The notes under the pieces: generated by a model | Database searches by the model: none | What the model was told of the DNA's origin: nothing | What the model saw: only the letters and a program-made list of their open reading frames with translations | DNA from: a virus | Length of the DNA stretch: 64,000 nt | Strand: one strand, 5' to 3' | IMG/VR virus record: IMGVR_UViG_3300027708_001637 | Shown: positions 6,819-28,790 of the stretch, piece after piece | Layout of the letters: each line of letters opens with the position of its first letter | How positions within the stretch are numbered: position 1 is the stretch's first letter | Position numbers and translations under genes: made by a program

Positions 6819-7256
6819 ATGGACAATAAATTAAATCAAATTGTGTGCAGTGGTGGGATATTTTTAGCCCGAGATACTAAACGATTTTTATTCTTACTAC
6901 GCACCCAAGGCAAAACTGCCAACACCTGGGGTCTAGTTGGTGGTAAGAAAGAGCCTACAGACACTACTGCTTACGAAGCACTTGATAGAGAAATTTCTGA
7001 AGAAGTCGGGAAGACTCCACCTATCAAGAAAGTAATTCCTTTAGAATTGTTTACCAGCAATGATCAAAATTTCCAATACAACACCTATGTATTGATAGTA
7101 GATAAGGAATTTATTCCTACACTAAATGAAGAGCATAGCGGTTATGCTTGGTGTAGTTTTGATCTATGGCCTAAACCATTGCATCAAGGTGTTAAGAACA
7201 GCTTCAACAATAAGGCAGTTAGAGCTAAGTTGGAATTGTTGTTAGAATTAATCTAA
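6819..7256 (+). CDS. Nudix hydrolase
   Basis: Nudix box GGKKEPTDTTAYEALDREISEEVG. Confidence 0.9.
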   Translation: MDNKLNQIVCSGGIFLARDTKRFLFLLRTQGKTANTWGLVGGKKEPTDTTAYEALDREISEEVGKTPPIKKVIPLELFTSNDQNFQYNTYVLIVDKEFIPTLNEEHSGYAWCSFDLWPKPLHQGVKNSFNNKAVRAKLELLLELI

Positions 7257-7454
7257 TCTACCCCATTTAATTCTGTTCCATATTCTCTCGTGGAACCAAT
7301 ATAAAATACTATTAGCAAATAGCTGAGTTATTGCAATTCCAGAACTTAAGAATAATTGTCCGGTAGTTAAGTATACAATTAAAAAAGTTGAACCGCTACC
7401 GGTTATTCGCCAAGTAACGGTTTTAACTATACTTCGAATGTTTGTGTCACTCAA
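7248..7454 (-). CDS. DUF2061-like small membrane protein
   Basis: RSIVKTVTWRI...YWFHERIWNRIKWG signature with two hydrophobic helices. Confidence 0.8.
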   Translation of the reverse strand: MSDTNIRSIVKTVTWRITGSGSTFLIVYLTTGQLFLSSGIAITQLFANSILYWFHERIWNRIKWGRLD

Positions 7455-8304
7455 GACCTAAACTCTTTCTAATCTTAGTAGCAGAAATATCGGTAATGCT
7501 TTCATCAAATGTTTCTTCCCCGTGAGTATATCCTACACCACGACCCCAGCCAATGTGTACAATATTAGGTACAACTTGTATTTCGTATTGACCTTGAAAC
7601 AACGGATCTAAATCACGTTTAATAAAGCCCCTAACTTGATCAATGGCAAATGGATTAGAACCCTGCCATCCCTGTACATCGCGTACTTGAATGACAACTT
7701 GGCCAGTCTTTGCAATCAATCTTTCAAATAATGCACGATGTCCGGCGTGCCAAGGTTGCCAACGTCCCAGCATCTGTACAGTTTCTTTCTGCCAATCAAA
7801 TTTAGGGCGGTGGCGGTTTTCTAAAATATGTGAACCAATAAACTCGGCCCATTTTTCTGCATTTTGCTCAGTGACTCGGAAGTCGTAAATAGAGGGAGGG
7901 ATAAATGCTTTATTAGTATCATCAAACCGCCCAGACTCAATAGTGTCTACCCAAATAGTCCAGTCTGCTTTGAAGTTATTACGCATTTCTACCAAAGGTG
8001 CAACAAAATCACAAATGACATAATCACCTGATGAATTTAATGCAAAGTCTGCCATTCGTAAACTTTGACGAATTCGGCCTTCTTTACTAAAATCCCAATC
8101 ATTATAACGCTTTCTAATTTCATCAGCATTGAACCAATCTACTCGAACACGAAAATCTGAATTTGAGGGAATGCCCTCGTTATTCATTAATCTGCCTGGA
8201 TTGATCTTAAACAGATCACCGTGTGTTTCTAAGTATTTTTTTAATGCTGTTGCTAGATAAGTTTTACCCGAGCCAGGGAGGCCCATGATTAGAATTTTTT
8301 GCAT
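7447..8304 (-). CDS. cysC: Adenylylsulfate (APS) kinase fused to a C-terminal HxGH nucleotidyltransferase (cytidylyltransferase-like) domain
   Basis: N-terminal half has GLPGSGKT, FNADEIRK..DWDFSKEGRIRQ, DFVAP and FIPP (CysC-like). C-terminal half has MLGRWQPWHAGH. Confidence 0.8.
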   Translation of the reverse strand: MQKILIMGLPGSGKTYLATALKKYLETHGDLFKINPGRLMNNEGIPSNSDFRVRVDWFNADEIRKRYNDWDFSKEGRIRQSLRMADFALNSSGDYVICDFVAPLVEMRNNFKADWTIWVDTIESGRFDDTNKAFIPPSIYDFRVTEQNAEKWAEFIGSHILENRHRPKFDWQKETVQMLGRWQPWHAGHRALFERLIAKTGQVVIQVRDVQGWQGSNPFAIDQVRGFIKRDLDPLFQGQYEIQVVPNIVHIGWGRGVGYTHGEETFDESITDISATKIRKSLGLE

Positions 8305-8310
8305 CAGTTA

Positions 8311-8607
8311 TTACCCGCCTAAAATTTCAGTAAGTCTTGCCATTAGGTCTTCATTGCGCCAGGTGTCACGAACTGCATCGTAATCCGCGCCTTCCCATAC
8401 TGTTACCCCACGCCCGCCTGATCCACGAGTTTCTGTGCGGCCATCTGGAAAAGTTTCGGTAGTAAATGGACCGAGGTCAATTTCTACTTGCACGCGGCGT
8501 TGTTGAACGTTTTCTTGAATTTGGCGAATAACAAATTCATTTGTTACTTTTCGTTCTGCAAGAACAATTTCGTTGTCCAATGTTAATGTATCTACAATAG
8601 TTGTCAT
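8311..8607 (-). CDS. Hypothetical protein (98 aa)
   Basis: Clean ORF with AAGGAG SD and TAAATA at 8639-8644. Confidence 0.7.
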   Translation of the reverse strand: MTTIVDTLTLDNEIVLAERKVTNEFVIRQIQENVQQRRVQVEIDLGPFTTETFPDGRTETRGSGGRGVTVWEGADYDAVRDTWRNEDLMARLTEILGG

Positions 8608-8641
8608 ATTATCTCCTTAAGAATGACGATTTCAGTAATAT

Positions 8642-9523
8642 TTATAGTTGTTTGCCTAGCGTAGGTAGTATCTTTTTAGCACCTGGCGCCGTTTGCATAC
8701 CTGTGATCCAATTTAAGTTTTTCTTTTGATCAAAGTTTTGTTTCCAAAAACTCTTGGGGCTGTATGTATCCCATAATTCGCCTGGCAAAATACTACGTCT
8801 TTCTTTATATTCTACTCGTCGACGCACAGTATGCAATCCTGTTATTTTAGCCTGAACGTCAAACTCGTCGTAACTATCTTCAACATTTTCAAAATCATGC
8901 TCATACCAAGATTCGCCTAAGAATTGATAAATTTGTTGAAGTACAGCTTTGGGATTTTTAACCAGTGTGTCATATTCTACATAACAAATTTGATTAATTT
9001 CGTTACAAAACATACTTTGCTGTACGTTGATTAACGGTCCGTGAACATAGCCACCAAAGTTTGGCACCTTTCCCATTAACATACTGCATCGATCGTGAAT
9101 ATTGCCCAACTCTTGATGATGATATAACGGTTTGATTGTATGGGGATTCTTTGCATTGAGTTGTTCAAAGCTATCCAAGATCCACGGAACATCTCTAAGA
9201 CAAACAATCATCTTAAAGTCGGGGAATAAATCTTTTAATAAAGCAGTGTCTGCACTCCAACCACGATTGGTATTAAAGCATACTTGGTTACCATATTTGT
9301 AAAAGCTATCAAATAGGTCACGCATTAGTTCACGTCGCCGTTCAAGCGGAACTGCGGCATCCATTCCTACGGCAGTATTAGTATCTTTAGTGATACTATG
9401 CATATAGCTAGCCAAAGGATCACTTATTCCTGCTGTAAATCTAGGATTCTGTTTTAAGATGGCACTTAATAAGGTTGATCCAGATCTAGGTAATCCAGAA
9501 ATAAAGTGGTAAGTTTTGCTCAT
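8642..9523 (-). CDS. PAPS-dependent sulfotransferase
   Basis: 5'-PSB loop ISGLPRSGSTLL, plus KMIVCLRDV...DS and VEYDTLVKNP...QIYQFLG. Confidence 0.88.
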   Translation of the reverse strand: MSKTYHFISGLPRSGSTLLSAILKQNPRFTAGISDPLASYMHSITKDTNTAVGMDAAVPLERRRELMRDLFDSFYKYGNQVCFNTNRGWSADTALLKDLFPDFKMIVCLRDVPWILDSFEQLNAKNPHTIKPLYHHQELGNIHDRCSMLMGKVPNFGGYVHGPLINVQQSMFCNEINQICYVEYDTLVKNPKAVLQQIYQFLGESWYEHDFENVEDSYDEFDVQAKITGLHTVRRRVEYKERRSILPGELWDTYSPKSFWKQNFDQKKNLNWITGMQTAPGAKKILPTLGKQL

Positions 9524-11217
9524 TTATTTTTCTTAACAAGTTTACCAACATCGGGCAAATACAAATATTCAATATCACTGTTAAACAAAGTAACTAATGC
9601 ATCAATAATTGTTTCAACTAGTGGCTGGCCAGCTAGATTAAAACTAGTATTGAACAACAAAGGCACCCCTGTGAGTTTTTGGAACTCACTAATCAGTTCA
9701 TAGTAATGAGGATTTTGATCTGGATTGACAGTTTGCACTCTGCAAGTATTATCTACGTGTGTTACTGCTGGAATTTGTTCAATTTTATCTTCACGAACAT
9801 CTACAGCATACATCATAAATGGACTAGATGTCATTCCTGCCATATCAAACCATTCATTAGCGTGTTCTTCTAAGACAGATCCAGCAAATGGGCGGAACCA
9901 TTCGCGACGTTTAACACGATTAACAAAGTCTTTGCCATCAGGTCTACGTGGATCAAACAATATACTACGATTGCCTAATGCACGTGGGCCTCCCTCTGCA
10001 CGACCTTGGAATAGTGCAACAATATTTCCTTGATCAATTAACTGTGCAATATCGCTAGCAGTCGCATCAACAACTTCAGCATTAAGTTTATTTTGTTCAA
10101 TTAAACTTAATTGACTATAATCAGGAGGAGCACTTAGATATACTGTAGATAATTCTTTTGGCGTAGTTTCTAAAGATTGAACAAACCAAGCATACCTTGC
10201 AAGACCAATAGCAGTGCCGCCATCGTGAGCAATGGGGTCAATATAGAACTTCAAATTAGGAAAACGTTTAACAAATTTATAATTTGCCACACAATTTAGA
10301 CCAAAACCTCCAGAAATAACCACGTTTGTTTCACCAGTAATATCAACAGCCTTTTGTATTAGATCATACATCTGTTCTTCAACAGCCTGTTGTACGTGAT
10401 ATGCAAGATTCTTATCCACATCACGAATAAGATTAAAATCGTTATGCCATTCTTTAGGTTCAGCAAAACGTTTCAAATAAGGATTACGGTTTTCGTCAAT
10501 ACGTGCGCCAGCAGGATATAATGGCATCAATAAATTCTTATTGCCCTTACCATTAATAAAAAATTCAGGAATATATTCATCGCGCTCGCCGTATGGCGCA
10601 AGCCCCATAGTCTTACCCGCTTCGATAAAGCCAAAACCTAGATAATCACTCACTGCTTCGTACGCTTTGGTAATAGTTACTGAGTTATCAAATTCTTGGA
10701 TACCGTTATCATAATATGCAGCATTGCCATCTGCATAACGTTTGTATACTGCATTAAATTCGTGAGGATAGGAACATTGATAAATTGTTTCAGTTTCAAA
10801 TCCCCCTACTACAAAGTTTTCATTTACTTGTTCTTGATGAAATGACCCAGCGCCGTCCACAATAATTGCTACCGCAGAGTCAAAACCTGACCCATAAAAT
10901 GTATTTGCTGCGTGTCCTAAATGATGTAAATGACCCATCTTTGTAATTTTAACATTAGGATTGAATTTACGGGCAAGTGCAGAATACGCATCTTCTCCAG
11001 TCCACGGTAATTGTGATAATTGATTAGTGGTCCCGCCAATAACGATTTCATCAACTACGTGATTGATTAAAACGTGTATCATTGCTCTAAATGGATTGCC
11101 GTCATATTTCATACGGCTTAATCTTTCTTCTTCTGAATAATAAACAACTTCGCCGTCGACTACTAGTGCAGCCGAACCGTTATGTCCAGGATTAATTGCT
11201 AAAATGCTGTATGTCAT
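9520..11217 (-). CDS. O-carbamoyltransferase, NodU/CmcH/TobZ family
   Basis: Motifs EEERLSRMK, HHLGHA, IVDGAG, GKTMGLAPYG, DGGTAIG, GPRALGNRS, REWFRPFA, HVDNTCRVQTV and NTSFN. Confidence 0.93.
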   Translation of the reverse strand: MTYSILAINPGHNGSAALVVDGEVVYYSEEERLSRMKYDGNPFRAMIHVLINHVVDEIVIGGTTNQLSQLPWTGEDAYSALARKFNPNVKITKMGHLHHLGHAANTFYGSGFDSAVAIIVDGAGSFHQEQVNENFVVGGFETETIYQCSYPHEFNAVYKRYADGNAAYYDNGIQEFDNSVTITKAYEAVSDYLGFGFIEAGKTMGLAPYGERDEYIPEFFINGKGNKNLLMPLYPAGARIDENRNPYLKRFAEPKEWHNDFNLIRDVDKNLAYHVQQAVEEQMYDLIQKAVDITGETNVVISGGFGLNCVANYKFVKRFPNLKFYIDPIAHDGGTAIGLARYAWFVQSLETTPKELSTVYLSAPPDYSQLSLIEQNKLNAEVVDATASDIAQLIDQGNIVALFQGRAEGGPRALGNRSILFDPRRPDGKDFVNRVKRREWFRPFAGSVLEEHANEWFDMAGMTSSPFMMYAVDVREDKIEQIPAVTHVDNTCRVQTVNPDQNPHYYELISEFQKLTGVPLLFNTSFNLAGQPLVETIIDALVTLFNSDIEYLYLPDVGKLVKKNK

Positions 11218-12146
11218 TATTTTGTCTTTCTATCAATGTCTGCTACAATACTACTGTAAATAGAATTCAATTCTATATCGCTAAAATTCATAGCGTTTTC
11301 ATTTAACCGATTGGATAGGGATACATCCAAACCTGCAATACGAATTGGGCTGTATTTTCTAATCTTACCCATATCGATACAATTGAAATAGTCGGGATAA
11401 CTTGTATTAATTGGGAATGTACTACCAAAGATAACTGATCCAGGTGTACCTACGGCTCGAGCCAAATGCTGGCCCACTGAATCACATCCAATAAAGTAAT
11501 CAGCTTCTGCAATCAATGCGCCCCACTGACGCAGATCGCACGTATATTTCTGTGCGTATGTATCTTGTTTTAATTGAAATTCTGGTTCGCCAAAGAAAAC
11601 CATATTATATTTTTGTGACAATTTACGAACTAAGAACAAATAATCTTTTTGTCCAAGGCTGCGACTTTCTTCGTCGATAACTTGCTCACGATCCATTTTG
11701 GCACCACGGCCAAATGGTTGGAAGATAACAGTCTTAGGACGTTTTTGCAAATTCTTTAAATCGTTGATTGTATTTTCTGCAACTAATTGTTCTTGACGAT
11801 TGAACACCAATGAAGGAACACCAAGATCGCTATGATCAGTAGTGTTGTTGATCTCACGGTCAAATGCTTGTACCAAACTAATTTCTTGACGGAAGTATGC
11901 AGGATTACGATATGGCTCGGGGGTAATAATTAAATCTGCATTTTTAACTACGTTATCGAACACACCTTTAGTGTCCAAATTATATGCACGATCTTGTAAT
12001 TCTGGAATACCCCAAAGCAAGAAGTCCCACGCCCCAATTAGTACTGCCCAATCTGTATTAGGATTTAATCTGTTGTATTTTAACAAAGCAGGAATTGCTG
12101 CTACCACACGGCCTGCACCGCCATCGATCCAAAATATCTTCTTCAT
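11217..12146 (-). CDS. GT9-like glycosyltransferase (ADP-heptose:LPS heptosyltransferase fold)
   Basis: C-terminal FIGCDSVGQHLARAVGTPGSVIFGST is the GT9 signature; N-terminal GGAGRVVAAIPAL. Confidence 0.75.
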   Translation of the reverse strand: MKKIFWIDGGAGRVVAAIPALLKYNRLNPNTDWAVLIGAWDFLLWGIPELQDRAYNLDTKGVFDNVVKNADLIITPEPYRNPAYFRQEISLVQAFDREINNTTDHSDLGVPSLVFNRQEQLVAENTINDLKNLQKRPKTVIFQPFGRGAKMDREQVIDEESRSLGQKDYLFLVRKLSQKYNMVFFGEPEFQLKQDTYAQKYTCDLRQWGALIAEADYFIGCDSVGQHLARAVGTPGSVIFGSTFPINTSYPDYFNCIDMGKIRKYSPIRIAGLDVSLSNRLNENAMNFSDIELNSIYSSIVADIDRKTK

Positions 12147-12203
12147 TATATGTTTCCTTGTCTATTATTTAATGCGCAGTTAATGCTGCTTAACAATTCT
12201 TGA

Positions 12204-13610
12204 TTAGCGGTACCAGAACCAAACATTCTTACTAGTATGTTGTATTTCTGTAGTAATGTCAAGCTCTTTTCTAAAATCATTTACTGCTCGATTTACTTCA
12301 GGCAAGTTCCAATCGTGTCCTGCAAATATCCCGCCAGGTTTTACTTTGGACCAATATGCTCTAAGATCTCGGCTCACTGCGGCATAGCTGTGGTCACCAT
12401 CAATAAAAATATAATCCAATTCATTATCTGCAATATGATCTGCCGCTGCAATAGAATCCATCTCTAACATTTCAATTTGATCTGCATAGGGGGCAAGCAA
12501 GCTAACAGCGTGATTACGCCACACATCAACCATATCCTGTGTCACAGGTCCCCACCAATCTTGATATGGCTGGTAAGCATCAATAGCATAAACTTTATTA
12601 ATTTCACTGGAGTGGTCTAAAAAGTACCTCAATGTCCAGGCCCAACATACTCCTAGTTCACAGCCAACTAAATTTGTGCCTAATTTTTTAATATAGGCCA
12701 ACAGGCCATCTGCACTTACCTTATCCATAGGAACTATACTATTACCCTGTTTAATCCATAACATCTGTTTAATCATACCAGTGAAATTATTATTTTGAAA
12801 ATAATTCCATAGTTGGTATTTGTCTGCTACACGTCTTGCATCGCCGCCAGTCAATAATAAATTTGTTAACTCACTACCCCAAAGTTCAACAAATCTTTGA
12901 TAATATTGAGTATCACGCTGTTTAGTTTCTTGTGCAGTTTCTACCCCACTCCAACTGCTTTTTCCTTGAAAGTGCAGCAGATAAGATTGACTAACGTACT
13001 TTACATCAAATCCTGCTTGAATAGCTCTGATTCTATAATCAACATCTTCCCCGCCGTGACCGTACAACTCATCAAAGCCGCCAATTTTCTTATAAATTTT
13101 AGAAGGAATTTTAACAGCGTAAAACGGTATGAGGTGGCGGTCAAATAGACCTGGTTTAACTGAGGATTTATGTTGACGTACTATATTGTTTAACTCATAC
13201 TCATTGTATTGATCAATATTCATCGCCGATTCTAATGTAAAATTATCACTAGAATATATATGAGTTTGATTGCAACTTGGCACAACAATACAGTTACTAT
13301 ATCCTTGAAGAGGCACAGCCCAATCAGGAGTAAATGCAATATCATTGTTTAAGATTACAACATCTTTACCATCAGCCAATGCAATAATTTTGTTAACATT
13401 TTTAGCAAAATTCTGCGGCACTTCATTTGCAATAATCGTAACTGCTTTATCACCGTGTGCACCAACTGCATCGTTATCAATTAGATAAAATTTATCATCA
13501 GGTCCAAGTTTTGTATATTTTAAAAATGTATCAATTGCAAGGCCTGTATAAAAATCAGATTTTGCAGTAGATATAATTGCGTAAACAGTACCTTTCATTT
13601 CTTTCTCCAA
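12204..13610 (-). CDS. GT2-like glycosyltransferase fused to a class I SAM methyltransferase (Methyltransf_24-like)
   Basis: N-terminal half has LNNDI, IGGFDELYGHGGEDVDY and LLHFQGKS. C-terminal half has ELGV, IFIDGDHSY and KVKPGGIFAGHDW. True start may be the second Met. Confidence 0.82.
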   Translation of the reverse strand: MEKEMKGTVYAIISTAKSDFYTGLAIDTFLKYTKLGPDDKFYLIDNDAVGAHGDKAVTIIANEVPQNFAKNVNKIIALADGKDVVILNNDIAFTPDWAVPLQGYSNCIVVPSCNQTHIYSSDNFTLESAMNIDQYNEYELNNIVRQHKSSVKPGLFDRHLIPFYAVKIPSKIYKKIGGFDELYGHGGEDVDYRIRAIQAGFDVKYVSQSYLLHFQGKSSWSGVETAQETKQRDTQYYQRFVELWGSELTNLLLTGGDARRVADKYQLWNYFQNNNFTGMIKQMLWIKQGNSIVPMDKVSADGLLAYIKKLGTNLVGCELGVCWAWTLRYFLDHSSEINKVYAIDAYQPYQDWWGPVTQDMVDVWRNHAVSLLAPYADQIEMLEMDSIAAADHIADNELDYIFIDGDHSYAAVSRDLRAYWSKVKPGGIFAGHDWNLPEVNRAVNDFRKELDITTEIQHTSKNVWFWYR

Positions 13611-14395
13611 AATTCTAAATGCATATTTCTATACATATTAGTCAACTCTCTGCCAATAACTTCTTCAGGTGGGGGACTGGCTTTCTTCAATGTAGGCCTA
13701 ACATCGTGTAGTCCAACAAGGCCGCCGTGAAACCCATCATTCTCATCCATGGGCTGTAGATTATTTGTATCTAATTTAAATGTATCAATGTTGATAAAAT
13801 TACAAATCTTATCAATAGTTTCTTGACCATTGCCTACAATATCTTTGTATTCTAAAAATAACATTTCAACATCGCCCGAATTAACACCAATACGTAAACT
13901 AGTATAAGGATGGGAGATGTATTTTTCCCAAAGTATTTTACATCGATTTTTAGTGTTGACTGGTAAACCCGAATCAATTAAATCCTGGTCGACGAATGTA
14001 ACTCTATCATTATTACGCTCAATCAATAAACAGTATGATGCTAGAATATCAGGAATACTACGAACCGTACAAATAATCAATGGCTTGAATCCAAACACTT
14101 GTCTAGTAATGGCGCCATATCTGGGCCACAATCTATTTTTATCAACGATTGTTTGTTTATCAATATGTTTATATGCACCATCGATTGCACCCAACATAAT
14201 ATTGCTGTACTGTTTGGGGTGCGGATCAACTAATGCTTGACTAATATTAGGCCACTGTTCGCCAATTATGCCAACTAGGTCTGCTACTGGGCTGGTAGTT
14301 GATGCATATATTTCTGGATGTTGATTTAACATTGAACTGAGTACTTGACTGCCAGATCTAGGAATTCCAGAAAGCATAACAAAATTCTTGTTCAT
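13595..14395 (-). CDS. Second PAPS-dependent sulfotransferase
   Basis: LSGIPRSGSQVL, VDKNRLW and IICTVRSIPDILAS; clearly paralogous to 8642..9523. Confidence 0.85.
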   Translation of the reverse strand: MNKNFVMLSGIPRSGSQVLSSMLNQHPEIYASTTSPVADLVGIIGEQWPNISQALVDPHPKQYSNIMLGAIDGAYKHIDKQTIVDKNRLWPRYGAITRQVFGFKPLIICTVRSIPDILASYCLLIERNNDRVTFVDQDLIDSGLPVNTKNRCKILWEKYISHPYTSLRIGVNSGDVEMLFLEYKDIVGNGQETIDKICNFINIDTFKLDTNNLQPMDENDGFHGGLVGLHDVRPTLKKASPPPEEVIGRELTNMYRNMHLEFWRKK

Positions 14396-15114
14396 AATTG
14401 TCTACGGGGCAACGATGGAATTTTAGGCACAACAGGTTTTACTATTGCGGGCGGAGTAATAGTTGCGGGTCGGCCAGCTTTGGACCAAACAGAATAATCA
14501 CCTTGGAATTTATAAGGACCGATGTGACTGCAAGTCATACTGGGATCTAACCAAATTTTAAATCCACCGTCTATTAATTTTTGTAATGCATAAATGTCTT
14601 CACTCATCAAATCGTTATCAGTTACAATGACATCAAAAATCATTCTGCGTTCTTTGTTGTCTTTCTTGTCAATATAAGATTTATTAGTATCCCACAAGTA
14701 TTGCATTGCCTTACGATTCATACGTAGGAACCCAGTCCCTAAACCTTGAACTTCTATTAAGCCAGTTTTTGAATCAATTGGACCAGGGACTCTAACAACA
14801 TACTCTTCTCGGTCACCTTTTTTTCGATAAGTGCCGCCCACAACATCAACTGGATATTCTAGCAGTTTGAAGAACCATTCAGGTTGCCATTCGATGTCAC
14901 TGTCAATCCAGATGAGATCGTCGATGCCTGTTTCCAATGCAATATGAATAGTATCATTACGGGCACGCTGTATTAATGCATCAAAGCTGACCCACATTGG
15001 GGTGATTTCTACGTCGTGTTTGGCTGCTTGTTTAATAGTGTTTACTAAACTATTCGTATACCAAACATCTAATCTTCCGTCGTAGCACGGAGTACCTATC
15101 ATTACTTTACGCAT
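14392..15114 (-). CDS. GT-A fold glycosyltransferase (GT2-related)
   Basis: IGTPCY, RARN, DxD motif WIDSD, GLGTGFL, SED and CSHIG. Confidence 0.72.
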   Translation of the reverse strand: MRKVMIGTPCYDGRLDVWYTNSLVNTIKQAAKHDVEITPMWVSFDALIQRARNDTIHIALETGIDDLIWIDSDIEWQPEWFFKLLEYPVDVVGGTYRKKGDREEYVVRVPGPIDSKTGLIEVQGLGTGFLRMNRKAMQYLWDTNKSYIDKKDNKERRMIFDVIVTDNDLMSEDIYALQKLIDGGFKIWLDPSMTCSHIGPYKFQGDYSVWSKAGRPATITPPAIVKPVVPKIPSLPRRQL

Positions 15115-16016: not shown

Positions 16017-16026
16017 AGTAACACCG

Positions 16027-22000: not shown

Positions 22001-22563
22001 CAACCCGCATTGAGGGCCAATGCGCCAGTGCCAATACCAAGGCTGTTATAGGTAGCAGACAGTGCAGGAAATGTAGCACCGTTAACATATAATCCAGTAC
22101 TGTCAACTCGAATACGTTCAGTAGCGCCCGCACCAATCAATACTGTAGCAAAACAGCCAGCTGCTGCTGGTAATGAACCAATAACGGTATTAAAAGCACC
22201 AGTGGTAATGTTAACACCTGCACAATATCCAATAGCAATGTTGCTTGATCCACAAGTACTTGCTGCCAATGATACACATCCGATAGCTATGTTATTATTA
22301 CCAGTGGTATTACATTTAAGGGCCGAATATCCTTGAGCAATATTATTGTTGCCGTAAGTAGCACTACAAAGTGCACTGTTTCCAATGGCAATATTATTGT
22401 TACCTGAAGTATTACATTGTAAACTTAGCGTACCAATAGCTACGTTATTACACCCAGTAGTCAGACTAGATAAGTTTGATACACCAACTGCCACGTTACC
22501 GCTGGTGGTATTACATCCTGTTAAGTTAGGTATAATTGTATTTCCGCAAATTTTAATTGCCAT
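16027..22563 (-). CDS. Giant Cys-rich tail fibre/adhesin (2178 aa) with 17-aa NxxAIG..AL..NTTG repeats and a C-terminal S74 intramolecular chaperone
   Basis: Long 51-nt periodic repeat resembling YadA-head beta-rolls. C-terminus SDIRDK...LRPVKFTW...GFIAQEL...coiled coil. Confidence 0.85.
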   Translation of the reverse strand: MAIKICGNTIIPNLTGCNTTSGNVAVGVSNLSSLTTGCNNVAIGTLSLQCNTSGNNNIAIGNSALCSATYGNNNIAQGYSALKCNTTGNNNIAIGCVSLAASTCGSSNIAIGYCAGVNITTGAFNTVIGSLPAAAGCFATVLIGAGATERIRVDSTGLYVNGATFPALSATYNSLGIGTGALALNAGCNNFAFGLGALCKNTTGWDNFAVGLCAAGCNTYGSANVAIGRFALVNNTTGSGNIAVGSNSLRCNTVGCHNIALGNNTLYCNTSGQQNIAIGNNALYGNSFGCGNVAQGYRALCGNKSGSFNVAIGILTLTNNTSGCSNTAIGACALYNNTSGGCNTAIGYAALCCNTSGSNNIAIGSQALANNTIGCQNFAQGYKAQYCGTTGNNNIAFGFCAGFAGGGCNNIAMGYKAFTCNTVGVDNFAFGTYGLRSNVNGFGNFAAGYKAQCSNISGCYNIAIGQCALQGNIQSNNVALGYAALYGNTSGCNNTAIGCNALFLNGSGCNNVAIGYCAAAKNSTGNNNLAVGSLALYCNTTGSNNFAVGFNALCKNTIGGSNFAQGYQALGVNSTGCNNFAQGYWSLRLTTTGSNNIAIGRSAMQNNTIGCNNIAQGYYALLCNTSGSNNFAQGYYSLICNTTGSNSIAIGCCSLVLSNASGSNIAIGALAGSALTTGVNNTIIGSLSAAAGCVCTVLIGAGTCERIRVDNSGLYVNNTLVNTSGASAATPTALGTVYAYTTSGTGNISVGYCSSNITSTGVNNIAIGCLALLSNTTGSNNAAVGYAALCANTIGNGNFASGCNALAANTIGSYNFAQGYNALKNNTTGCTNVAIGPFALCANTIGSNNIAIGCSALTKNTTGNNNLAIGCFAMCTNTSGSNNVALGFGALKCNTIGCNNTAIGCNALYGNISGSNNTAIGQVALYYNTTGANNIAIGYATLRCNTTGSNNIAQGYRALTANEIGSNNIAIGLCTLYYNTSGSNNIAIGGCAMRFTCAGNDNVAQGYQALYCNAYGNNNTAIGKKSLYVNSSGCNNTAIGYFALYGNTAGCNNTAIGYQALYNNTSGYNNTAIGCSALCSNTSGRNNVAIGSSTLAKNTYGTHNVAIGCSALFANINGNNNTAIGYQALGINTSGSNNTAIGCNALLNNTTGSNNFAVGFCAAYSNTTGSNNVAIGCFALLSNTIGTDNTAIGYSALRANTTGSSNFAVGSNALTGNTIGCGNFAVGNGALCANTIGSNNIAVGTSAMNFNTSGFSNIAIGYQTLFCNTTGSYNTAIGLSAMQLNLTGIHNIAIGYCSLYNNTAGSYNIAQGYWALCGNLTGSGNIAFGANSLRANSSGNNNIANGTCALLCNTIGNNNVALGCNALSSNSSGSNNFAVGAFALNYNTSGCNNTAIGGGALYCNTIGINNVAIGYGSLTSNTNGCNNFAIGCSALFTNTIGNNNTAIGYQALGINTSGSNNTAIGFYALYKNTSGSNNFAVGRCALYNNTTGPNNIAIGCLALYNNTFGNSNSAQGYKALYCNTIGTDNTAIGNSALSNNTGGCNNVAIGPVSLLNNTTGSNNLAIGSFALYCNRTGCNNVAIGYGALYSNTAGSDNFAAGQYALCCNTTGGYNIAIGCNALFLNTIGGNNTALGSGALYSNSLGCDNFAVGCNALDTNSSGNSNVAIGYTSLASNTTGSYNVAIGCCALKSNTTGINNVAIGSSALGFSLNGSNNTAIGCLALSCNTSGKNNLAIGCSALTNNYSGCNNVAIGFNALYGQAGGPGLVGSNNIAVGQAALTNNAGGNNNVALGCSALYFNSSGNNNTAIGYSALKANTTGSSNFAVGSNALTSNTIGSGNFAVGACALYGNTIGCNNTAIGCQALCNNTSGASNTAIGYRALYFNNTGCNNTAIGYQALYCNTSGCNNVAIGWASLIFNTTGANNFAVGICALYSNSYGNNNVAFGCRALCNNTSGSSNTAVGNGALQGNITGSNNIAIGCNALSGGGNGCHNIAFGQSALNFSSGNHNIAIGYNTAFAAAFSGSNNVFLGCNAQGLTATSNNTITLGDANIATIRAQVTTITALSDIRDKTSVENVPLGLKFIMDLRPVKFTWNMRDGGKVGVSEAGFIAQELLAVTEKYGVKDWLPLVLEENPERLEATPGKLLPIIVRAIQELAEENASLKTRITALEDRLNSST

Positions 22564-22673: not shown

Positions 22674-25600
22674 TTAGCTTAATTTTGATTGTAGAGCCGT
22701 AATCTGTAGTTGTTGCTGTTTAACTGCTTCAATTAAGAAACCAATTAACGGCAGATAACTAACGGTCTTGTAGTTGTTGGCATCATTACCCACTAGTTCT
22801 GGCAATATTTTTTCCAACTCTTGTGCAATCACACCGTAACTCCTTCGACCACTTTCTTTCCAATTAAATTTAACACCACGTAATTGCTGCAGAATTTCAA
22901 TTGGATTATCAATTATAGCAATGTTAGTCTTAACTGCCGCATCTGAGGTTGAGTTTAATTCAACTACAGTTAATTGTCCAGTGCTGGGATTGTATTTCAA
23001 CTTGGTGGTTGATACATTTATTGCAGATAATGTGCCTGAACTAGTCGTGCTGAATAGTGGAAAGTAATCACTGTTGGTAGTGGTATTATCACTAATTGTT
23101 GCACCCCCAGAAGTGCTGACCAATGTATTGTTTACATAAAGTCCACTATTATCAACACGGATACGTTCACAAGTACCAGCACCAATTAAAACTGTGCATA
23201 CACATCCTGCCGCAGCTGGTAATGAACCAATAATGGTGTTGTTTGATCCGTCAGAATATTGTCCAGCAAGGGTGCCAATTGCAATATTATTTGAACCAGT
23301 TGTATTACAATTAAGTGCATTACAACCAATGGCAATATTATGACAGCCAGTAGTATTAGCTATAAGAGAACATTGTCCAAGTGCGGTGTTATTATTACCA
23401 TATGAGTTACGACATAGTGAATTACATCCAATGGCAATATTACTTGATCCCGTAGTGTTATTAAACAGTGCATTACAACCAATAGCTGTATTGTGATTAC
23501 CGCTAGAATTGTTACCTAGTGCACTTAATCCAATAGCTAGATTACTGCATCCTGATGTATTTTTCCAAAGAGCAAAACAACCAATAGCAGTGTTATCATT
23601 ACCATACAAATTACTGCAAAGTGCAAACGGTCCGATTGCTACATTATTACTGCCTGTGGTATTACCAGCAAGAGTGTTGTATCCAATAGCAGTGTTATTT
23701 GAGCCAGTGGTATTTTTATATAGAGAGCAACAACCTACAGCTTTATTATTACTGCCTAAGGTATTGCAATTAAGTGCCCTGTATCCTTGAGCAGAGTTGT
23801 TGTTACCAATGGTATTTGCACATAACGAATACTGACCAATTGAAATATTATTGACACCAGATATATTAGATTTTAATGCAAAACACCCTATAGCAACGTT
23901 GTTGCAACCAGATGTATTGCTGCCAAGGGCGCAATAGCCTTGGGCAATGTTGCCACATCCAATAGTGTTATTTTGCAATGCACCAAAACCTAGTGCAATA
24001 TTATTACATCCAAATGTATTATAATATAGTGCAGTTGACCCAATTGCCACGTTATTACAGCCAGTGGTGTTAGCTTGAAGAGCATTATTACCAAAGGCAA
24101 TATTATTAGCACCGTAAGTATTAGTTAAAAGGGCACTGATGCCAATAGCAATATTATTAGAAGCATTATTATTTTTGAGAGAATTTAATCCAATGGCTGT
24201 GTTATTAATTCCGGTAATATTAGATTGCAATGAACTAATACCAACAGCAAAGTTATGACATCCGCCAGTAATAGCAAACATTGAACAACAACCAATGGCA
24301 ATGTTACCGCACGAACTGGAGCTGGCATTGGTGCCACCGCCACCTATATACACGCTACATTGGGCGTTTAAACTAACTACACCTTGTGCTCCTTGAACGC
24401 CTTGTGTTCCAGTCCCAGCTGCTCCCTGAACTCCCTGGAATCCTTGTAGTCCCTGTGCTCCTTGAGCACCCGCTTGTCCCTGACTTCCTTGAACGCCCTG
24501 GAATCCTTGTAGTCCCTGTGCTCCTTGAACACCTTGTGAGCCAGTACCAGACGAACCTTGAACGCCTTGGAATCCTTGTGTTCCTTGTGCTCCTTGCACA
24601 CCTTGTGAGCCAGTACCAGGCGAACCTTGAACGCCTTGGAATCCTTGTGTTCCTTGTGCTCCTTGCACACCTTGTGAGCCAGTACCAGGCGAACCTTGAA
24701 CTCCCTGAAGACCTTGGTTTCCTTGAACTCCCTGGAATCCTTGTAGTCCCTGTGCTCCTTGAGCACCCACTTGTCCCTGACTTCCTTGAGCCCCAACTGA
24801 TCCTTGGGCGCCAGATCCAACTAATACATTGTTTACATACAGGCCGCTGTTATCAACACGAATGCGTTCACAAGTGCCAGCACCAATCAACACTGTGCAC
24901 ACGCAGGCAGCGGCAGCATTTAAAGAACCAATAATGGTATTATTGGCACCAGTTGTTATAGCATAACCAGCATTGCTGCCAATAGCTATATTATTGGCGC
25001 CGGTAGTGTTACCATACAGTGCTCTACTTCCAAAAGATATATTATTACTTCCGATAGTATTACAACGTTGTGCACATTGTCCGATGGAAATATTATCAGA
25101 ACCAACAGAGTTATTAACAAGAGAGTAGTTACCAAAAGCTGTATTATTATTACCCGCAGTGTTATTACCAAGTGCATTACATCCAATAGCTGTGTTATGA
25201 CACCCGGTGCGATTGGAATTTAAAGAAGCACATCCAATTGCAATATTATGTGAACCGTAGGTGTTTGACTGGAGTGCAAAACAGCCAATTGCAAAATTTG
25301 ATTTACCAGTGGTATTACTGTTCAAAGCAAGATTACCGATGGCCACATTTGAGCTGCCAGTGGTGTTTGCAGACAACGCATTATTTCCAATAGCTGTATT
25401 ATCTGAACCAATGGTGTTTGCAGACAACGCACTACTTCCAAAAGCTGTATTATTATTACCGTAGGTGTTTGCAGCTAATGCGTATTGTCCAATGGCAATA
25501 TTAGCACATCCAGTAGTGTTAAATCTTAATGCACAAATGCCGATGGCTGTATTACTATTGCCAGTGGTATTTGAGCCAAGTGCACTACATCCAACGGCTG

Positions 25601-28600
25601 TGTTATTATTGCCATAGGTGTTGGAATAAAGAGTGCCGTATCCAATGGCTGTATTACTATTGCCAGTAGTGTTAAGACGTAGTGCGCTGCATCCAATGGC
25701 TGTATTAAAACAACCACTGGTATTTGAGCCAAGTGCGCCGCAGCCAACAGCAGTATTATGGTTACCGTAAGTATTGGTCCTTAGGGAACCAAACCCAATA
25801 GCGGTGTTACTAATACCGGTAGTGTTTGCACTTAATGAAAAACAACCAAAAGCTGTGTTATTGCAACCAGTAGTGTTAGAACATAATGATTTATAACCTT
25901 TGGCATTGTTGTTATTTCCATAGGTATTGCATTTAAGTGCATTATATCCTTGTGCATTATTGTTATTACCAATTGTGTTATTTTTTAGAGCCATTACGCC
26001 TATAGCAACGTTGGCGCAGCCACTAGTATTGCAGTTAAGTGCATTATTACCAACACCAACATTATTGCAGCCACTAGTGTTTGACTGCAAAGCATTTGCC
26101 CCAGCTGCAAAGTTATCGGTACCTCCTGTAGTACCGTAAAGTGCACTGGCGCCAAAAGCTATATTATTAGAACCACCAGATTTAAGTGCATAACTGCCAA
26201 TTGCAATATTATTAAAACCTGTAGTGTTACCACATAATGCGTTAGGACCAGCAGCAAAGTTGTTAGTGCCAATGGTGTTGTTGTAGAGTGCACCAGAACC
26301 CAATGCAATGTTGCCACATCCGGTGGTGTTTGAACACATGGCAAAGCAACCAATTGCAATGTTATTTGAACCAGTAGTGTTTTTAGTTAGAGAACTACAC
26401 CCAATTGCAACGTTATTACATCCAGAAGTGTTTGCACATAGAGCAAATGGTCCAATAGCAACGTTAGTACAACCAGTAGTGTTGTTTCTTAAAGCATTGT
26501 AACCTTGGGCAAAGTTATAGCTACCAATGGTGTTGGCGGCCAATGCAGCACACCCCGATGCAAAGTTGCCTACACCAATTGTATTTCCGCATAGTGCAGC
26601 GTAGCCAACCGCGTCGTTATTACTTCCAGTAGTGTTAGAAAACAATGCCAAACAACCAATAGCAATGTTATTTGATCCAGTGCTAGTTGTATTACCAGCA
26701 CAACAACCAATACTTGTATTTCCATTACCTGTAGTATAACCAAATACCGTACCTAATGTTGTTGGAGTCGCCGCACTCACACCACTGGTATTAACTAATG
26801 TGTTGTTTACATACAGGCCGTTGTTATCAACACGAATGCGTTCACAAGTGCCAGCACCTAATAACAATGTACAAACACAACCAGCAGCAGCTGGTAGTGA
26901 ACCAATGATGGTATTATTGTAACCAGTAGTGATCAAACATCCTGAACAAATACCAATAGCAATATTACCGCTACCAGTGGTATTACTGTTTAAAGCCTTA
27001 TACCCCTGAGCTATGTTATTACACCCAGTTGTATTATTAATTAGTGCATATACCCCGTCAGCAGTGTTGTAACATCCAGTGGAATTGTTATAAAGTGCGC
27101 ATAGACCAATAGCAGTATTACCAATACCAGTAGTATTACAATAAAGTGCAGAAGTACCAATAGCAACGTTGCAACTACCAGTGCTATTGTTATAAAGTGC
27201 AGTTGATCCTAGCGCGACATTATAAGTTCCTAGGGTATTTGATCTAAGTGCATAATTGCCAATCGCAGTATTATTACCAGTGGTGTTGCAATAGAGTGTC
27301 TGGGCACCTATGGCTACGTTATTGTTGCCAGAAATGTTAGCAAATAAAGAATTAACACCTAAACTAACGTTATAACAACCAGTATTATTATAATAAGAAG
27401 CGGTATAACCTATTGCTACATTATAAAGACCGTATGAATTACAATAAAGTGCGCTTTGACCAATTGCAGTATTGGCACATCCAGTGGTATTACTAGTAAG
27501 TGCGTTGGCACCAATAGCGGTGTTAAAATTACCAGTGGTGTTATTTCTAAGTGTACTTGCACCAATGGCCGTGTTGTAATTGGTGGTGTTGCAATATAAT
27601 GCTTGATATCCAATGGCAACGTTATTACAACCGGTATTATTATAAAATAAAGTATACTGTCCTATACCAACGTTATATGCGCCATATAAATTTCTGTTTA
27701 GTGCACATAGGCCAATGGCGGTATTACACGAGCCAGTGGTGTTGCAGAGTAGTGAATTGAATCCAATAGCGACGTTATTATTGCCGTAGGTGTTGCCGCA
27801 GAGTGCATTGTTTCCAATAGCCGTGTTATATGCACCAGTGTTGTTATTTTTAAGTGAACTAATGCCAATAGCTGTGTTATTGTTACCAGTAGTATTATTT
27901 TGTAGTGAATTAATACCAATGGCAAAGTTATTGCAACCGCTGGTAACAGCAAACATTGAACAGCAACCAATGGCAATATTACTTAAAGAACTAGTGTTAG
28001 CACTAGTGCCGCCTCCACCTATATACACGCTGCATTGAGCGTTTAAACTAACTACCCCTTGACTTCCTTGAGCACCGACTCCTGGCGCACCTTGAACTCC
28101 TTGGCTACCTTGAGCGCCCACTTGTCCCTGTGTTCCTTGAACGCCTTGAAGTCCTTGGTTACCTTGAACACCTTGAAGTCCTTGGTTACCTTGAACACCT
28201 TGAAGTCCTTGGTTACCTTGAACACCTTGTAGTCCTTGTGCTCCTTGAACGCCTTGTGTACCAGTACCAGACGAACCTTGAACGCCTTGAAGTCCTTGGT
28301 TACCTTGAACGCCTTGAAGTCCTTGTGCTCCTTGAGCGCCTGCTTGTCCTTGTGCTCCTTGAGCGCCAGTACTTCCCTGGGGTCCAGTACCAGGTGCTTG
28401 GTATTGTAGTGTGTTGGGTGTTGAACTCATTGCCAACACCCAACTTGCTGTAGTAGCATTTACAGTTGGAAACGTTAATGAAGCGGGGTGATTTAAAGCA
28501 GTTCCGCTTCCCAATGTTAGAGTTGAGGTACTTGCTGGTTGAGTAATAATTACATTATTAAATGTTGTAGCAGTCACAGTACCGTTGACAAATATCCCGC

Positions 28601-28790
28601 CATTGACACTTAATTTGGCGCCGCTTTGAGCACTGGTGTATCCAAGGTCAAGATTACCGCTGGTATCTAATCTAAAATATTCAGTATTATTGGCACTAAA
28701 TGTGATAGGCAAACTGATGACATTAAACGTGCCAGTAGTGATTGCTCCAGCAGAGTTTTCTATAAACGTTAAATTACTAGCAATTGACAT
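22674..28790 (-). CDS. Second giant Cys-rich fibre (2038 aa): 17-aa repeats, two collagen-like Gly-X-Gln segments and an S74 chaperone
   Basis: Same repeat as 16027..22563. QGAQGLQGVQG tracts. C-terminus SDAAVK...LRGVKFNWK...YGVIAQELEKILPELV. Confidence 0.85.
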   Translation of the reverse strand: MSIASNLTFIENSAGAITTGTFNVISLPITFSANNTEYFRLDTSGNLDLGYTSAQSGAKLSVNGGIFVNGTVTATTFNNVIITQPASTSTLTLGSGTALNHPASLTFPTVNATTASWVLAMSSTPNTLQYQAPGTGPQGSTGAQGAQGQAGAQGAQGLQGVQGNQGLQGVQGSSGTGTQGVQGAQGLQGVQGNQGLQGVQGNQGLQGVQGNQGLQGVQGTQGQVGAQGSQGVQGAPGVGAQGSQGVVSLNAQCSVYIGGGGTSANTSSLSNIAIGCCSMFAVTSGCNNFAIGINSLQNNTTGNNNTAIGISSLKNNNTGAYNTAIGNNALCGNTYGNNNVAIGFNSLLCNTTGSCNTAIGLCALNRNLYGAYNVGIGQYTLFYNNTGCNNVAIGYQALYCNTTNYNTAIGASTLRNNTTGNFNTAIGANALTSNTTGCANTAIGQSALYCNSYGLYNVAIGYTASYYNNTGCYNVSLGVNSLFANISGNNNVAIGAQTLYCNTTGNNTAIGNYALRSNTLGTYNVALGSTALYNNSTGSCNVAIGTSALYCNTTGIGNTAIGLCALYNNSTGCYNTADGVYALINNTTGCNNIAQGYKALNSNTTGSGNIAIGICSGCLITTGYNNTIIGSLPAAAGCVCTLLLGAGTCERIRVDNNGLYVNNTLVNTSGVSAATPTTLGTVFGYTTGNGNTSIGCCAGNTTSTGSNNIAIGCLALFSNTTGSNNDAVGYAALCGNTIGVGNFASGCAALAANTIGSYNFAQGYNALRNNTTGCTNVAIGPFALCANTSGCNNVAIGCSSLTKNTTGSNNIAIGCFAMCSNTTGCGNIALGSGALYNNTIGTNNFAAGPNALCGNTTGFNNIAIGSYALKSGGSNNIAFGASALYGTTGGTDNFAAGANALQSNTSGCNNVGVGNNALNCNTSGCANVAIGVMALKNNTIGNNNNAQGYNALKCNTYGNNNNAKGYKSLCSNTTGCNNTAFGCFSLSANTTGISNTAIGFGSLRTNTYGNHNTAVGCGALGSNTSGCFNTAIGCSALRLNTTGNSNTAIGYGTLYSNTYGNNNTAVGCSALGSNTTGNSNTAIGICALRFNTTGCANIAIGQYALAANTYGNNNTAFGSSALSANTIGSDNTAIGNNALSANTTGSSNVAIGNLALNSNTTGKSNFAIGCFALQSNTYGSHNIAIGCASLNSNRTGCHNTAIGCNALGNNTAGNNNTAFGNYSLVNNSVGSDNISIGQCAQRCNTIGSNNISFGSRALYGNTTGANNIAIGSNAGYAITTGANNTIIGSLNAAAACVCTVLIGAGTCERIRVDNSGLYVNNVLVGSGAQGSVGAQGSQGQVGAQGAQGLQGFQGVQGNQGLQGVQGSPGTGSQGVQGAQGTQGFQGVQGSPGTGSQGVQGAQGTQGFQGVQGSSGTGSQGVQGAQGLQGFQGVQGSQGQAGAQGAQGLQGFQGVQGAAGTGTQGVQGAQGVVSLNAQCSVYIGGGGTNASSSSCGNIAIGCCSMFAITGGCHNFAVGISSLQSNITGINNTAIGLNSLKNNNASNNIAIGISALLTNTYGANNIAFGNNALQANTTGCNNVAIGSTALYYNTFGCNNIALGFGALQNNTIGCGNIAQGYCALGSNTSGCNNVAIGCFALKSNISGVNNISIGQYSLCANTIGNNNSAQGYRALNCNTLGSNNKAVGCCSLYKNTTGSNNTAIGYNTLAGNTTGSNNVAIGPFALCSNLYGNDNTAIGCFALWKNTSGCSNLAIGLSALGNNSSGNHNTAIGCNALFNNTTGSSNIAIGCNSLCRNSYGNNNTALGQCSLIANTTGCHNIAIGCNALNCNTTGSNNIAIGTLAGQYSDGSNNTIIGSLPAAAGCVCTVLIGAGTCERIRVDNSGLYVNNTLVSTSGGATISDNTTTNSDYFPLFSTTSSGTLSAINVSTTKLKYNPSTGQLTVVELNSTSDAAVKTNIAIIDNPIEILQQLRGVKFNWKESGRRSYGVIAQELEKILPELVGNDANNYKTVSYLPLIGFLIEAVKQQQLQITALQSKLS
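24380..24810 (-). repeat. Collagen-like (G-X-Q)n coding repeat including three tandem 69-bp units
   Basis: CCAGTACCAG recurs at 24541, 24610 and 24679. The unit encodes SPGTGSQGVQGAQGTQGFQGVQG. Confidence 0.9.
28060..28385 (-). repeat. Collagen-like (G-X-Q)n coding repeat with 27-bp tandem units (QGNQGLQGV)
   Basis: CCTTGAAGTCCTTGGTTACCTTGAAC is repeated in tandem at about 28146-28225. Confidence 0.88.

Follow-up and report, generated by a model that had tools for sequence, protein, structure and literature searches.

What does a phage do with a set of glycan-building and glycan-tailoring enzymes encoded directly behind its fibres, and on what would they act? The question is raised by a 64,000-nucleotide stretch of viral DNA (IMG/VR record IMGVR_UViG_3300027708_001637; the window), in which ten contiguous minus-strand genes run from position 16016 to 7248, 3' of two giant fibre genes, and end convergent with a NUDIX gene. 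An earlier note on this DNA had read these genes as a late-expressed, fibre-coupled system for coating the virion with sulfated, carbamoylated and methylated glycans, an interpretation that our analysis partly supports. We put the probability at roughly 0.4 that the island, a late glycan-building and glycan-tailoring unit, decorates the phage's own virion proteins, chiefly the two giant fibres upstream.

The window comes from an uncultured giant phage, a T4-type myovirus, with homologues of gp13, gp14, a gp15/gp3-like tail-sheath stabiliser and a deoxynucleoside monophosphate (dNMP) kinase along with large virion structural proteins, and the island lies within this structural module, between the fibres and gp15/gp13/gp14. 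The stop codon of the nearer fibre gene (2178 amino acids [aa]; 16027 to 22563, minus strand, as are all genes described here unless noted) and the ATG of the first island gene are separated by exactly 10 nt, so that the layout and spacing given in the earlier note are confirmed. The island consists of three blocks of overlapping genes, and the only two real gaps (57 nt and 34 nt) separate the blocks. Block 1, which begins 10 nt after the fibre, encodes a family 4 glycosyltransferase of the GT-B type (GT4; 304 aa; 15102 to 16016), a 240-aa phage-specific GT-A-like protein (14392 to 15114), a first sulfotransferase (ST1; 13595 to 14395) and a weakly matching GT2-like N-domain fused to a Methyltransf_24/TylF-like O-methyltransferase (GT2-MT; 12204 to 13610). 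Block 2, beyond the 57-nt gap (12147 to 12203), encodes a glycosyltransferase of the heptosyltransferase-like GT9 fold (GT9; 309 aa; 11217 to 12146), a NodU/CmcH/TobZ-type O-carbamoyltransferase (CarbT; 9520 to 11217) whose gene overlaps that of GT9 by 1 nt, and a second sulfotransferase (ST2; 8642 to 9523). Block 3, beyond the 34-nt gap, encodes a 98-aa phage-only orphan (hyp98; 8311 to 8607), a fusion of a P-loop domain resembling adenosine 5'-phosphosulfate (APS) kinase (residues 1 to 165) to an HxGH/ISxTxIR nucleotidyltransferase domain (residues 171 to 285) (KinNT; 7447 to 8304) and a 68-aa DUF2061 membrane protein (7248 to 7454) whose gene overlaps the kinase gene by 8 nt.

The junction between the 2178-aa fibre and GT4 (16015 to 16043) carries a TTAAATA motif (16038 to 16044, with T at 16044 and the TAAATA core at 16038 to 16043) followed by a hairpin of 10 to 11 bp, in which the fibre stop UAA lies in the loop, while the 3' arm includes the first two nucleotides (A and U) of the GT4 AUG. 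At a dG of -12.6 kcal/mol, this hairpin is the most stable among the 33 start regions of the window (the next is at -8.5); pairing is kept at 96.7% in six relatives and includes one compensatory pair, and a non-homologous hairpin of the same architecture (z of -6.3) occurs at locus L020. The GT4 start has no Shine-Dalgarno sequence, which, together with the hairpin, implies that translation of GT4 is coupled to that of the fibre. The simplest reading is termination-reinitiation, by which GT4, and through the gene overlaps the rest of block 1, would be translated only by ribosomes that have just left the fibre open reading frame (ORF). A conserved fibre-GT4 coupling hairpin is new, and it offers a simple model of translational coupling between an enzyme and its substrate.

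Motifs of the T4 late type point to expression late in infection. Within the window, TAAATA lies no more than 45 nt upstream of a start 15 times, against ~0.7 expected, and all eight occurrences of ATAAATA (8/8) are intergenic, lie on the coding strand and precede a structural gene or hyp98; for TTAAATA alone the figure is 2/13. The full TATAAATA is under-represented (3 in 64 kb versus 9.5 expected), and this scarcity, along with the complete absence of ATAAATA from gene interiors and the noncoding strand, suggests selection against spurious late promoters. The three TAAATA motifs that the earlier note placed in the island (at 16038, 12166 and 8639) are all present, one per block, but the first two, at 16038 and 12166, read TTAAATA, and of the three the full TATAAATA is found only at 8639 to 8646. 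The second motif occupies 12166 to 12172 in the 57-nt gap (T at 12172, TAAATA core at 12166 to 12171), 20 nt before the GT9 start. The third, in the motif region at 8608 to 8646, overlaps the ST2 stop codon and is followed by AAGGAG before hyp98; it has the placement of a T4-type late promoter, being intergenic, on the coding strand and within ~20 to 45 nt of a start. Among relatives, NATAAATA stands 21 to 37 nt before hyp98 in ~25, and a canonical NATAAATA directly precedes GT4, GT9 or ST1 in several. Late expression, as claimed in the earlier note, is therefore supported, at the level of sequence, by T4-type motifs both here and in relatives. The remark that no terminator intervenes also held up, since none of the intergenic gaps contains a terminator-like site and such sites are no commoner than in shuffled sequence; nor does the island have more sigma-70-like promoters than shuffles do.

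The orphan hyp98, which has a perfect AAGGAG Shine-Dalgarno sequence, is confined to phages and kept across relatives, always behind NATAAATA, even where the sulfotransferases and the kinase are missing; these features suggest a late product made in large amounts, perhaps a small protein of the virion or one that helps to assemble it. A lake metatranscriptome library (X8) contains eight short exact contigs at a depth of 2 to 5, which derive from KinNT/hyp98, CarbT, GT2-MT, ST1, the GT-A-like gene and, at similar low depth, both fibres. These contigs record presence in an RNA library only, where DNA carry-over is possible and uncovered parts are uninformative; they are weak evidence and establish neither transcription nor timing.

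The 2178-aa fibre, the candidate acceptor nearest to the island, is built from ~14-residue YadA/Hep_Hag-like repeats, and the 2038-aa fibre beyond it (22674 to 28790, with AATAAATA upstream at 28813) has collagen repeats along with YadA-like ones; both end in a C-terminal Peptidase_S74 chaperone domain. The repeats are rich in N, G, S, T and C, and the 2178-aa fibre consists of 17% N, 14% G and 5% C, with many N-T-S/T-G stretches. Between 16600 and 23900, the best DNA run has contigs in which different repeats from the two fibre genes are joined, with 0.3 to 6 kb skipped, which reflects either assembly collapse or real length or cassette variants in the population.

We assigned gene identities using Pfam, PHROG and NCBIfam profile searches. 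The identities proposed in the earlier note stand for GT4, both sulfotransferases, GT2-MT, GT9, CarbT and DUF2061, while the 240-aa "GT-A" protein has weaker evidence behind it: an invariant D-S-D, membership in phrog_1574, a weak Glycos_transf_2 match (0.019) and viral Anp1/GT2 neighbours in Atlas. Sequence and profile searches of the PDB with this protein, hyp98 and the GT9 family gave no match. GT4 matches Glycos_transf_1 (9e-12), and GT2-MT matches Methyltransf_24 (6e-16) with weak GT2 matches. ST1 and ST2 match Sulfotransfer_3 (3e-8 and 1e-15) above the Pfam cut-off, both have a PRSGS 5'-phosphosulfate-binding (5'-PSB) motif near the N terminus, and both have an R-x-x-x-D-x-x-x-S 3'-phosphate-binding (3'-PB) motif near residue 110 (RSIPDILAS in ST1 and RDVPWILDS in ST2). 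The Pfam match and the two motifs together mark them as predicted sulfotransferases dependent on 3'-phosphoadenosine 5'-phosphosulfate (PAPS). CarbT scores above cut-off for both Carbam_trans_N (74 bits, 2e-20) and Carbam_trans_C (214.7 bits, 8e-64) and matches phrog_1601 at 8e-160, but reaches 149.7 bits against the NodU equivalog, whose cut-off is 1000; its profile scores thus place it in the NodU/CmcH/TobZ family and not as a NodU orthologue.

The assignment of GT9 is weak by sequence and solid by predicted fold. PF01075 (Glyco_transf_9) matches at 26.1 bits against a cut-off of 22, over residues 204 to 248 only. In Foldseek searches with its AlphaFold2 (AF2) model (pLDDT of 92), the top ~30 matches, ranks 1 to 25 of which were listed, are all GT9 enzymes (WaaF, 3tov, WaaC, TibC and a Veillonella GT9 among them; 8e-10 to 6e-8), followed by an NDH-PSI-LHCI chain at rank 31 (3e-7) and by other GT-B enzymes from ~2e-5. 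TibC is among the top matches with an E value of 5e-9, and WaaF and WaaC are equally good. The C-terminal motif D-S-x-G-x-H, with invariant D222, S223, G225, Q226 and H227, aligns to that of WaaC/WaaF; in hhalign comparisons with known heptosyltransferases, sequence alignment was confined to this motif, and the N-domain, where the catalytic Asp would lie, did not align. GmhA (PF13580) was not found in the contigs of 10 relatives.

Hydropathy scans of the island and of 50+ relatives' islands revealed no protein with at least four transmembrane segments and therefore no flippase, polymerase, phosphoglycosyltransferase or ABC permease. The components of a Wzx/Wzy-, ABC- or synthase-dependent polysaccharide pathway are likewise absent from the island and from the top Pfam families of relatives. 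A set of soluble enzymes without glycan export proteins agrees with an acceptor located in the cytoplasm, virion proteins being one example.

Searching IMG/VR with the GT9 protein gave 53 loci, and the island occupies the same place (fibres, island, gp15/gp13/gp14) in 50+ IMG/VR contigs. By tblastn, the recurring order is fibres, GT4, GT-A-like, ST1, (GT2-MT), GT9, CarbT, ST2, hyp98, KinNT and (DUF2061), followed by NUDIX/gp15-like/structural protein genes on the other strand and then by gp13. The GT9-CarbT pair is the invariant core: the two genes are adjacent in every locus down to ~55% GT9 identity and in the closer contigs from metagenome-assembled genomes (MAGs), and in the distant loci L047 to L053 and L063/L064 they share an island but in reversed order or 1 to 2 kb apart. 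In the cyanomyoviruses S-CAM1 and S-SSM7, an adjacent pair at 36% identity occurs, with heptose-nucleotide genes, between the tail fibres and gp13. Among 185,579 prokaryote genomes, members of the GT9 family were found solely on MAG contigs of phage-like character, one from a Polynucleobacter bin. Around the core, relatives' islands add GDP-mannose dehydratase, epimerases, a DegT aminotransferase, other sugar-nucleotide genes, more glycosyltransferases and methyltransferases, 2-oxoglutarate (2OG) oxygenases, tail-fibre assembly chaperones and a halogenase.

The conserved position and the hairpin, which ties translation to the fibre, bear out the idea of a conserved fibre-linked unit. Synteny with the fibre itself, for which the earlier note had proposed a survey, is found in part: in 18 of the 33 loci with upstream sequence, the first island gene has a homologous fibre upstream, which ends 14 to 100 nt away in 13 of these and 0.8 to 4.9 kb away in 5, but the remaining loci and a second island elsewhere, considered below, depart from this arrangement.

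The APS kinase fusion described in the earlier note resembles APS kinases in its first domain. The N-domain of KinNT matches APS_kinase (PF01583) at 31.3 bits against a cut-off of 21.1, has a PDB profile match, and in Foldseek searches has top matches that are nearly all APS kinases (E of 4e-6 and up), using an AF2 model of moderate quality (pLDDT of ~80 for the kinase domain, 62 overall and <50 for the C-domain). On the other side, it scores 22.3 against the TIGR00455 equivalog, whose cut-off is 138.7, and has FNAD in place of the canonical LDGD; the F-x-x-P and the FS...R...R substrate stretch are retained. The second domain is not recognisable as an ATP sulfurylase: its HxGH and ISxTxIR motifs are those of the nucleotidyltransferase superfamily, it is closest to nicotinamide mononucleotide (NMN) adenylyltransferases, and in profile searches it gave CTP_transf_like only (0.007), with no PF01747 or PF01507. 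When this domain was compared by hhalign with the HldE-like adenylyltransferase of S-CAM1, which has a PfkB kinase and a cytidylyltransferase at the place equivalent to KinNT, only the HxGH stretch aligned. DUF2061 is a clear Pfam match (4e-18), and in three metagenome proteins of 206 to 213 aa (P0123, P0125 and P0128) an APS-kinase-like domain is fused straight to DUF2061 without a nucleotidyltransferase domain. These fusions show the kinase and the membrane protein to be functionally tied, and suggest a membrane-tethered kinase, which would be unexpected for a PAPS-making enzyme.

Counted by lineage, nine islands have sulfotransferase and kinase, eight sulfotransferase only, none kinase only and eight neither. 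This co-occurrence is suggestive (Fisher p of ~0.012 over lineages), although phylogeny confounds it and it is not significant within the close clade. Among possible roles of KinNT, we tentatively place PAPS supply first, at less than even odds; a role in NAD or nucleotide metabolism is doubtful, and HldE-like sugar activation is unlikely. In our literature searches we found no report of phage sulfation with an APS kinase and nothing useful on DUF2061. A second KinNT copy with 71% identity, in relative G001 (L069; G001:C1:4000-18000), ends a clamp-loader/5'-nucleotidase operon, with no sulfotransferase nearby, and a further fibre gene of the YadA-like kind converges on it. In the window's own KinNT, DNA-run depth over the C-terminal half (7320 to 7983) rises to 56 versus ~22, and six contigs have a G>A variant at 7975; this conserved segment is shared with other abundant phages of the same lake sample, which fits the >7600 metagenomic homologues found for a single island gene.

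The reading we favour, decoration of virion proteins, can be laid out as a sequence of events. Late transcription from the fibre promoters would continue into the island, helped by the internal TAAATA-type promoters. Ribosomes ending the 2178-aa fibre ORF would melt the hairpin, stop at the loop UAA and begin again on GT4, whose start lies 10 nt further along, and the overlapping ORFs would relay this coupling down block 1. Four soluble glycosyltransferases (GT4, the GT-A-like protein, the GT2-like domain and the GT9-fold enzyme) would build a short cytoplasmic glycan from nucleotide sugars; CarbT, paired with the GT9-fold enzyme, would O-carbamoylate the sugar that the latter adds, probably a heptose-like one; the methyltransferase domain would O-methylate; and the two sulfotransferases would add sulfate from PAPS, whose supply KinNT with DUF2061 may raise. 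Late-module position, translational coupling to the fibre and a phage-specific enzyme lineage maintained across different hosts all argue for a virion acceptor, as does, by analogy, the precedent of TibC, in which an enzyme of the GT9 fold heptosylates a protein. Mycobacteriophage virion glycans (PMC12619734) and the prediction that bacterial sulfotransferase/PAPS-synthetase operons act on tail-collar and collagen-like proteins (PMC2938197) count on the same side. The fullest version, in which a fibre coat of sulfated, carbamoylated and methylated glycans has its output set by termination-reinitiation and its PAPS topped up by KinNT as a minimal "one-gene PAPS synthase" tethered to DUF2061, is unlikely to be right in all its parts; if true, this would be the first case of a bacteriophage whose virion glycans are sulfated or carbamoylated.

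Several observations weigh against decoration of the virion. The link between glycan and virion protein is a prediction from sequence, the timing is read from motifs, and the motifs before GT4 and GT9 in the window are the noncanonical TTAAATA. None of the recognised protein-glycosylating families (N-glycosyltransferases [NGT], features specific to bacterial autotransporter heptosyltransferases [BAHT] and oligosaccharyltransferases [OTase]) was identified. GT9 is classically a family of lipopolysaccharide (LPS) core enzymes, and cyanomyovirus clusters of this kind have been read as LPS genes (PMC3037559). Against PAPS supply by KinNT in particular, about half of the sulfotransferase-bearing islands have no KinNT, and in Xylella and Stenotrophomonas phages its homologues are found with early or replication genes, without sulfotransferases. 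In 15 of the 33 loci, non-homologous orphans stand upstream of the island, and PHROG scans of the large orphan ORFs at these loci were uninformative. Relatives G002 to G005 have a second CarbT/sulfotransferase/GT2/methyltransferase/GT9-like island ~45 kb away, beside an RCC1-repeat protein, and its distance from the YadA-like fibres weakens strict fibre linkage. Adjacency to the fibres may reflect no more than a recombination-tolerant hyperplastic region.

The second island as seen in G002 (L068; G002:C1:40000-57000) encodes the RCC1-repeat protein, a carbamoyltransferase, a sulfotransferase, a GT2, a methyltransferase and a GT9-like protein, along with a Mrp/ParA NTPase, a kinase-like protein with a degenerate P-loop, a von Willebrand factor A (VWA) protein, an epimerase and an aminotransferase. 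Islands of this type occur in relatives whose fibre-adjacent island has no sulfotransferases. The kinase-like protein adds nothing to the case for PAPS supply, given its degenerate P-loop and the lack of any PDB match.

The best-placed alternative, which we nonetheless regard as doubtful, is that the soluble enzymes act on lipid-linked intermediates of the host (LPS inner core or precursors of exopolysaccharide [EPS] and capsular polysaccharide [CPS]) and that the host exports the product, so that a receptor is altered late and progeny are spared loss on debris or superinfection is blocked. The GT9 fold matches WaaF/WaaC best, carbamoyl-heptose is made in Pseudomonas LPS cores by WapO (PMC8005017), the S-CAM1 and S-SSM7 homologues sit beside heptose-nucleotide genes and are annotated as LPS genes (PMC3037559), and the lack of phage export genes is compatible with hijacking of the host's own export. 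However, the late-module position and late motifs would leave little time for export before lysis, the core pair is kept both in marine cyanomyoviruses and in freshwater phages that lack psbA, whose hosts evidently differ, the GT9 family has no close bacterial homologues, and translational coupling to a fibre ORF is not expected of a host-directed enzyme. If the host envelope is the target after all, the island would amount to a system, unusual for a lytic phage, that edits the receptor late in infection.

It is less probable still that the island is a hyperplastic accessory region of separately acquired genes with different targets, in which KinNT would serve nucleotide or NAD metabolism rather than sulfation. 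Content does vary strongly: sulfotransferases, methyltransferase and kinase come and go, and relatives have gained sugar-nucleotide genes, oxygenases and a halogenase. KinNT homologues in replication or early regions (Xylella/Stenotrophomonas phages and G001) and a nucleotidyltransferase domain closest to NMN adenylyltransferases would fit as well. A loose assembly of this kind sits poorly with the tight overlaps (GT4-GTA-ST1-GT2MT and GT9-CarbT-ST2), with a gene order kept at GT9 identities from 96% to 65%, and with the fact that KinNT is never found in an island without a sulfotransferase.

We give only a slim chance to a soluble or lipid-linked tailored oligosaccharide, akin to a Nod factor, that is freed at lysis as a signal, decoy or protective matrix. 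The enzyme set does parallel the chemistry of NodU/NolO, NodH/NoeE and NodS, with weak NCBIfam matches to NodU (1e-43, far under cut-off) and NoeE, but these scores fall far below the equivalog cut-offs and the island lacks a NodC-type chitin synthase, an acyltransferase and an exporter. Modification of the phage's DNA is the least probable reading of all and unlikely: phage carbamoyltransferases can make 5-carbamoyloxymethylcytosine (PMC8670742) and phage glycosyltransferases can hypermodify DNA (as cited in PMC12619734), so that glycosylated or carbamoylated hydroxymethyl-pyrimidines in phage DNA are conceivable, but a thymidylate-synthase-type hydroxymethylase (PF00303) was not found in the contigs of 10 relatives, one of them 93% complete, MetaGPA carbamoyltransferases with flanking glycosyltransferases lie on unmodified contigs (PMC8670742), and a late structural module is the wrong position for a replication-linked function.

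As to the phage itself, a DNA-level search of GenBank phages with the island gave no match, while the window is near-identical in five freshwater metagenome runs (0.92 to 0.96 of sampled words) and found in part in two more. CheckV figures for related IMG/VR contigs put the genome size of the lineage at ~240 to 400 kb. A cyanobacterial host is without support, given that psbA was not found in five large relatives. One phage-like contig with a GT9-CarbT pair at 52% identity (L060) is binned in the MAG of an uncultured Polynucleobacter sp., a weak hint at Polynucleobacter as the host of the lineage. A plus-strand ORF of 111 aa (2408 to 2743) that separates gp14 from the dNMP-kinase-like gene has zinc-ribbon and weak HNH-like matches and may be the remnant of a homing-endonuclease-type insertion.

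If the fibres are indeed the acceptor, host-recognition organelles could carry charged, tailored glycans, which would affect adsorption, colloidal behaviour, resistance to proteases and grazing, and receptor mimicry in lakes and oceans, in a lineage that the >7600 homologues show to be abundant. The same result would supply a function for the "LPS clusters" of cyanomyoviruses, unexplained since 2005-2010, and the presence of the core pair in culturable cyanophages makes the question directly testable.

Known systems resemble the island in different respects. TibC is a protein O-heptosyltransferase of repeat adhesins, and, like TibC/Aah with TibA/AIDA-I, the phage encodes a GT9-fold enzyme beside a long beta-solenoid or repeat adhesin; it differs in that its GT9 is shorter (309 aa), aligns by sequence in D-S-x-G-x-H only and matches WaaF/WaaC equally well. 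Chloroviruses and mimivirus glycosylate their capsid or fibril proteins with virus-encoded cytoplasmic glycosyltransferases, including glycosyltransferase-methyltransferase fusions, but these are giant viruses of eukaryotes whose enzymes are unrelated to those of the island, and we know of no sulfation or carbamoylation described for their glycans.

Closer to home, mycobacteriophages glycosylate their virions (Freeman et al. 2023, as far as summarised in PMC12619734 and PMC12801897). According to those summaries, phage-encoded soluble glycosyltransferases act there on the phage's own structural proteins in the cytoplasm, as is predicted here; their glycans were located by mass spectrometry on the C termini of capsid and tail-tube proteins, whereas here genes alone point to giant repeat fibres as candidates, and sulfation and carbamoylation, if they occur, would be added chemistries. 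Iyer et al. (2010) described bacterial dioxygenase-sulfotransferase-PAPS synthetase operons that include tail-collar and collagen-like proteins as predicted substrates (PMC2938197). The island shares with them sulfotransferases and a putative PAPS-supply gene beside fibre or collagen-like proteins, and relatives' islands share the 2OG oxygenases; those operons are bacterial and are predicted to sulfate hydroxylated amino acids directly, whereas glycosyltransferases dominate the phage's late operon. In Pseudomonas, WapO (PA5005) 7-O-carbamoylates Hep II of the LPS inner core (PMC8005017), so that a heptosyltransferase-family enzyme and a carbamoyltransferase serve one pathway and the same sugar, as proposed here; that system acts on lipid A-core and is encoded in the waa cluster, whereas the pair described here is phage specific and lies in a late structural module.

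The nearest relatives of the island are the "LPS gene clusters" of large T4-like cyanomyoviruses (S-SSM7, S-SM2, P-SSM2 and S-CAM1) noted by Sullivan et al. in 2010, who left open whether these genes are functional or "stuffer DNA" (PMC3037559). The homologous core pair at the same position in S-CAM1 and S-SSM7 places the island with them: a GT9-like gene and a Nol-like carbamoyltransferase gene share one strand between the tail fibres and gp13/gp14, amid variable carbohydrate-related content. Where the cyanophage clusters have split-HldE, GmhA and epimerase heptose genes, the island has two sulfotransferases, a GT2-like/methyltransferase fusion, GT4, the GT-A-like protein and the APS-kinase-like fusion, and it belongs to a freshwater lineage of ~240 to 400 kb without psbA. 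The island is thus not new as a kind, its GT9-CarbT core already being present at the same position in S-CAM1 and S-SSM7; what is new is a toolkit for sulfation and carbamoylation in the late operon of a lytic phage.

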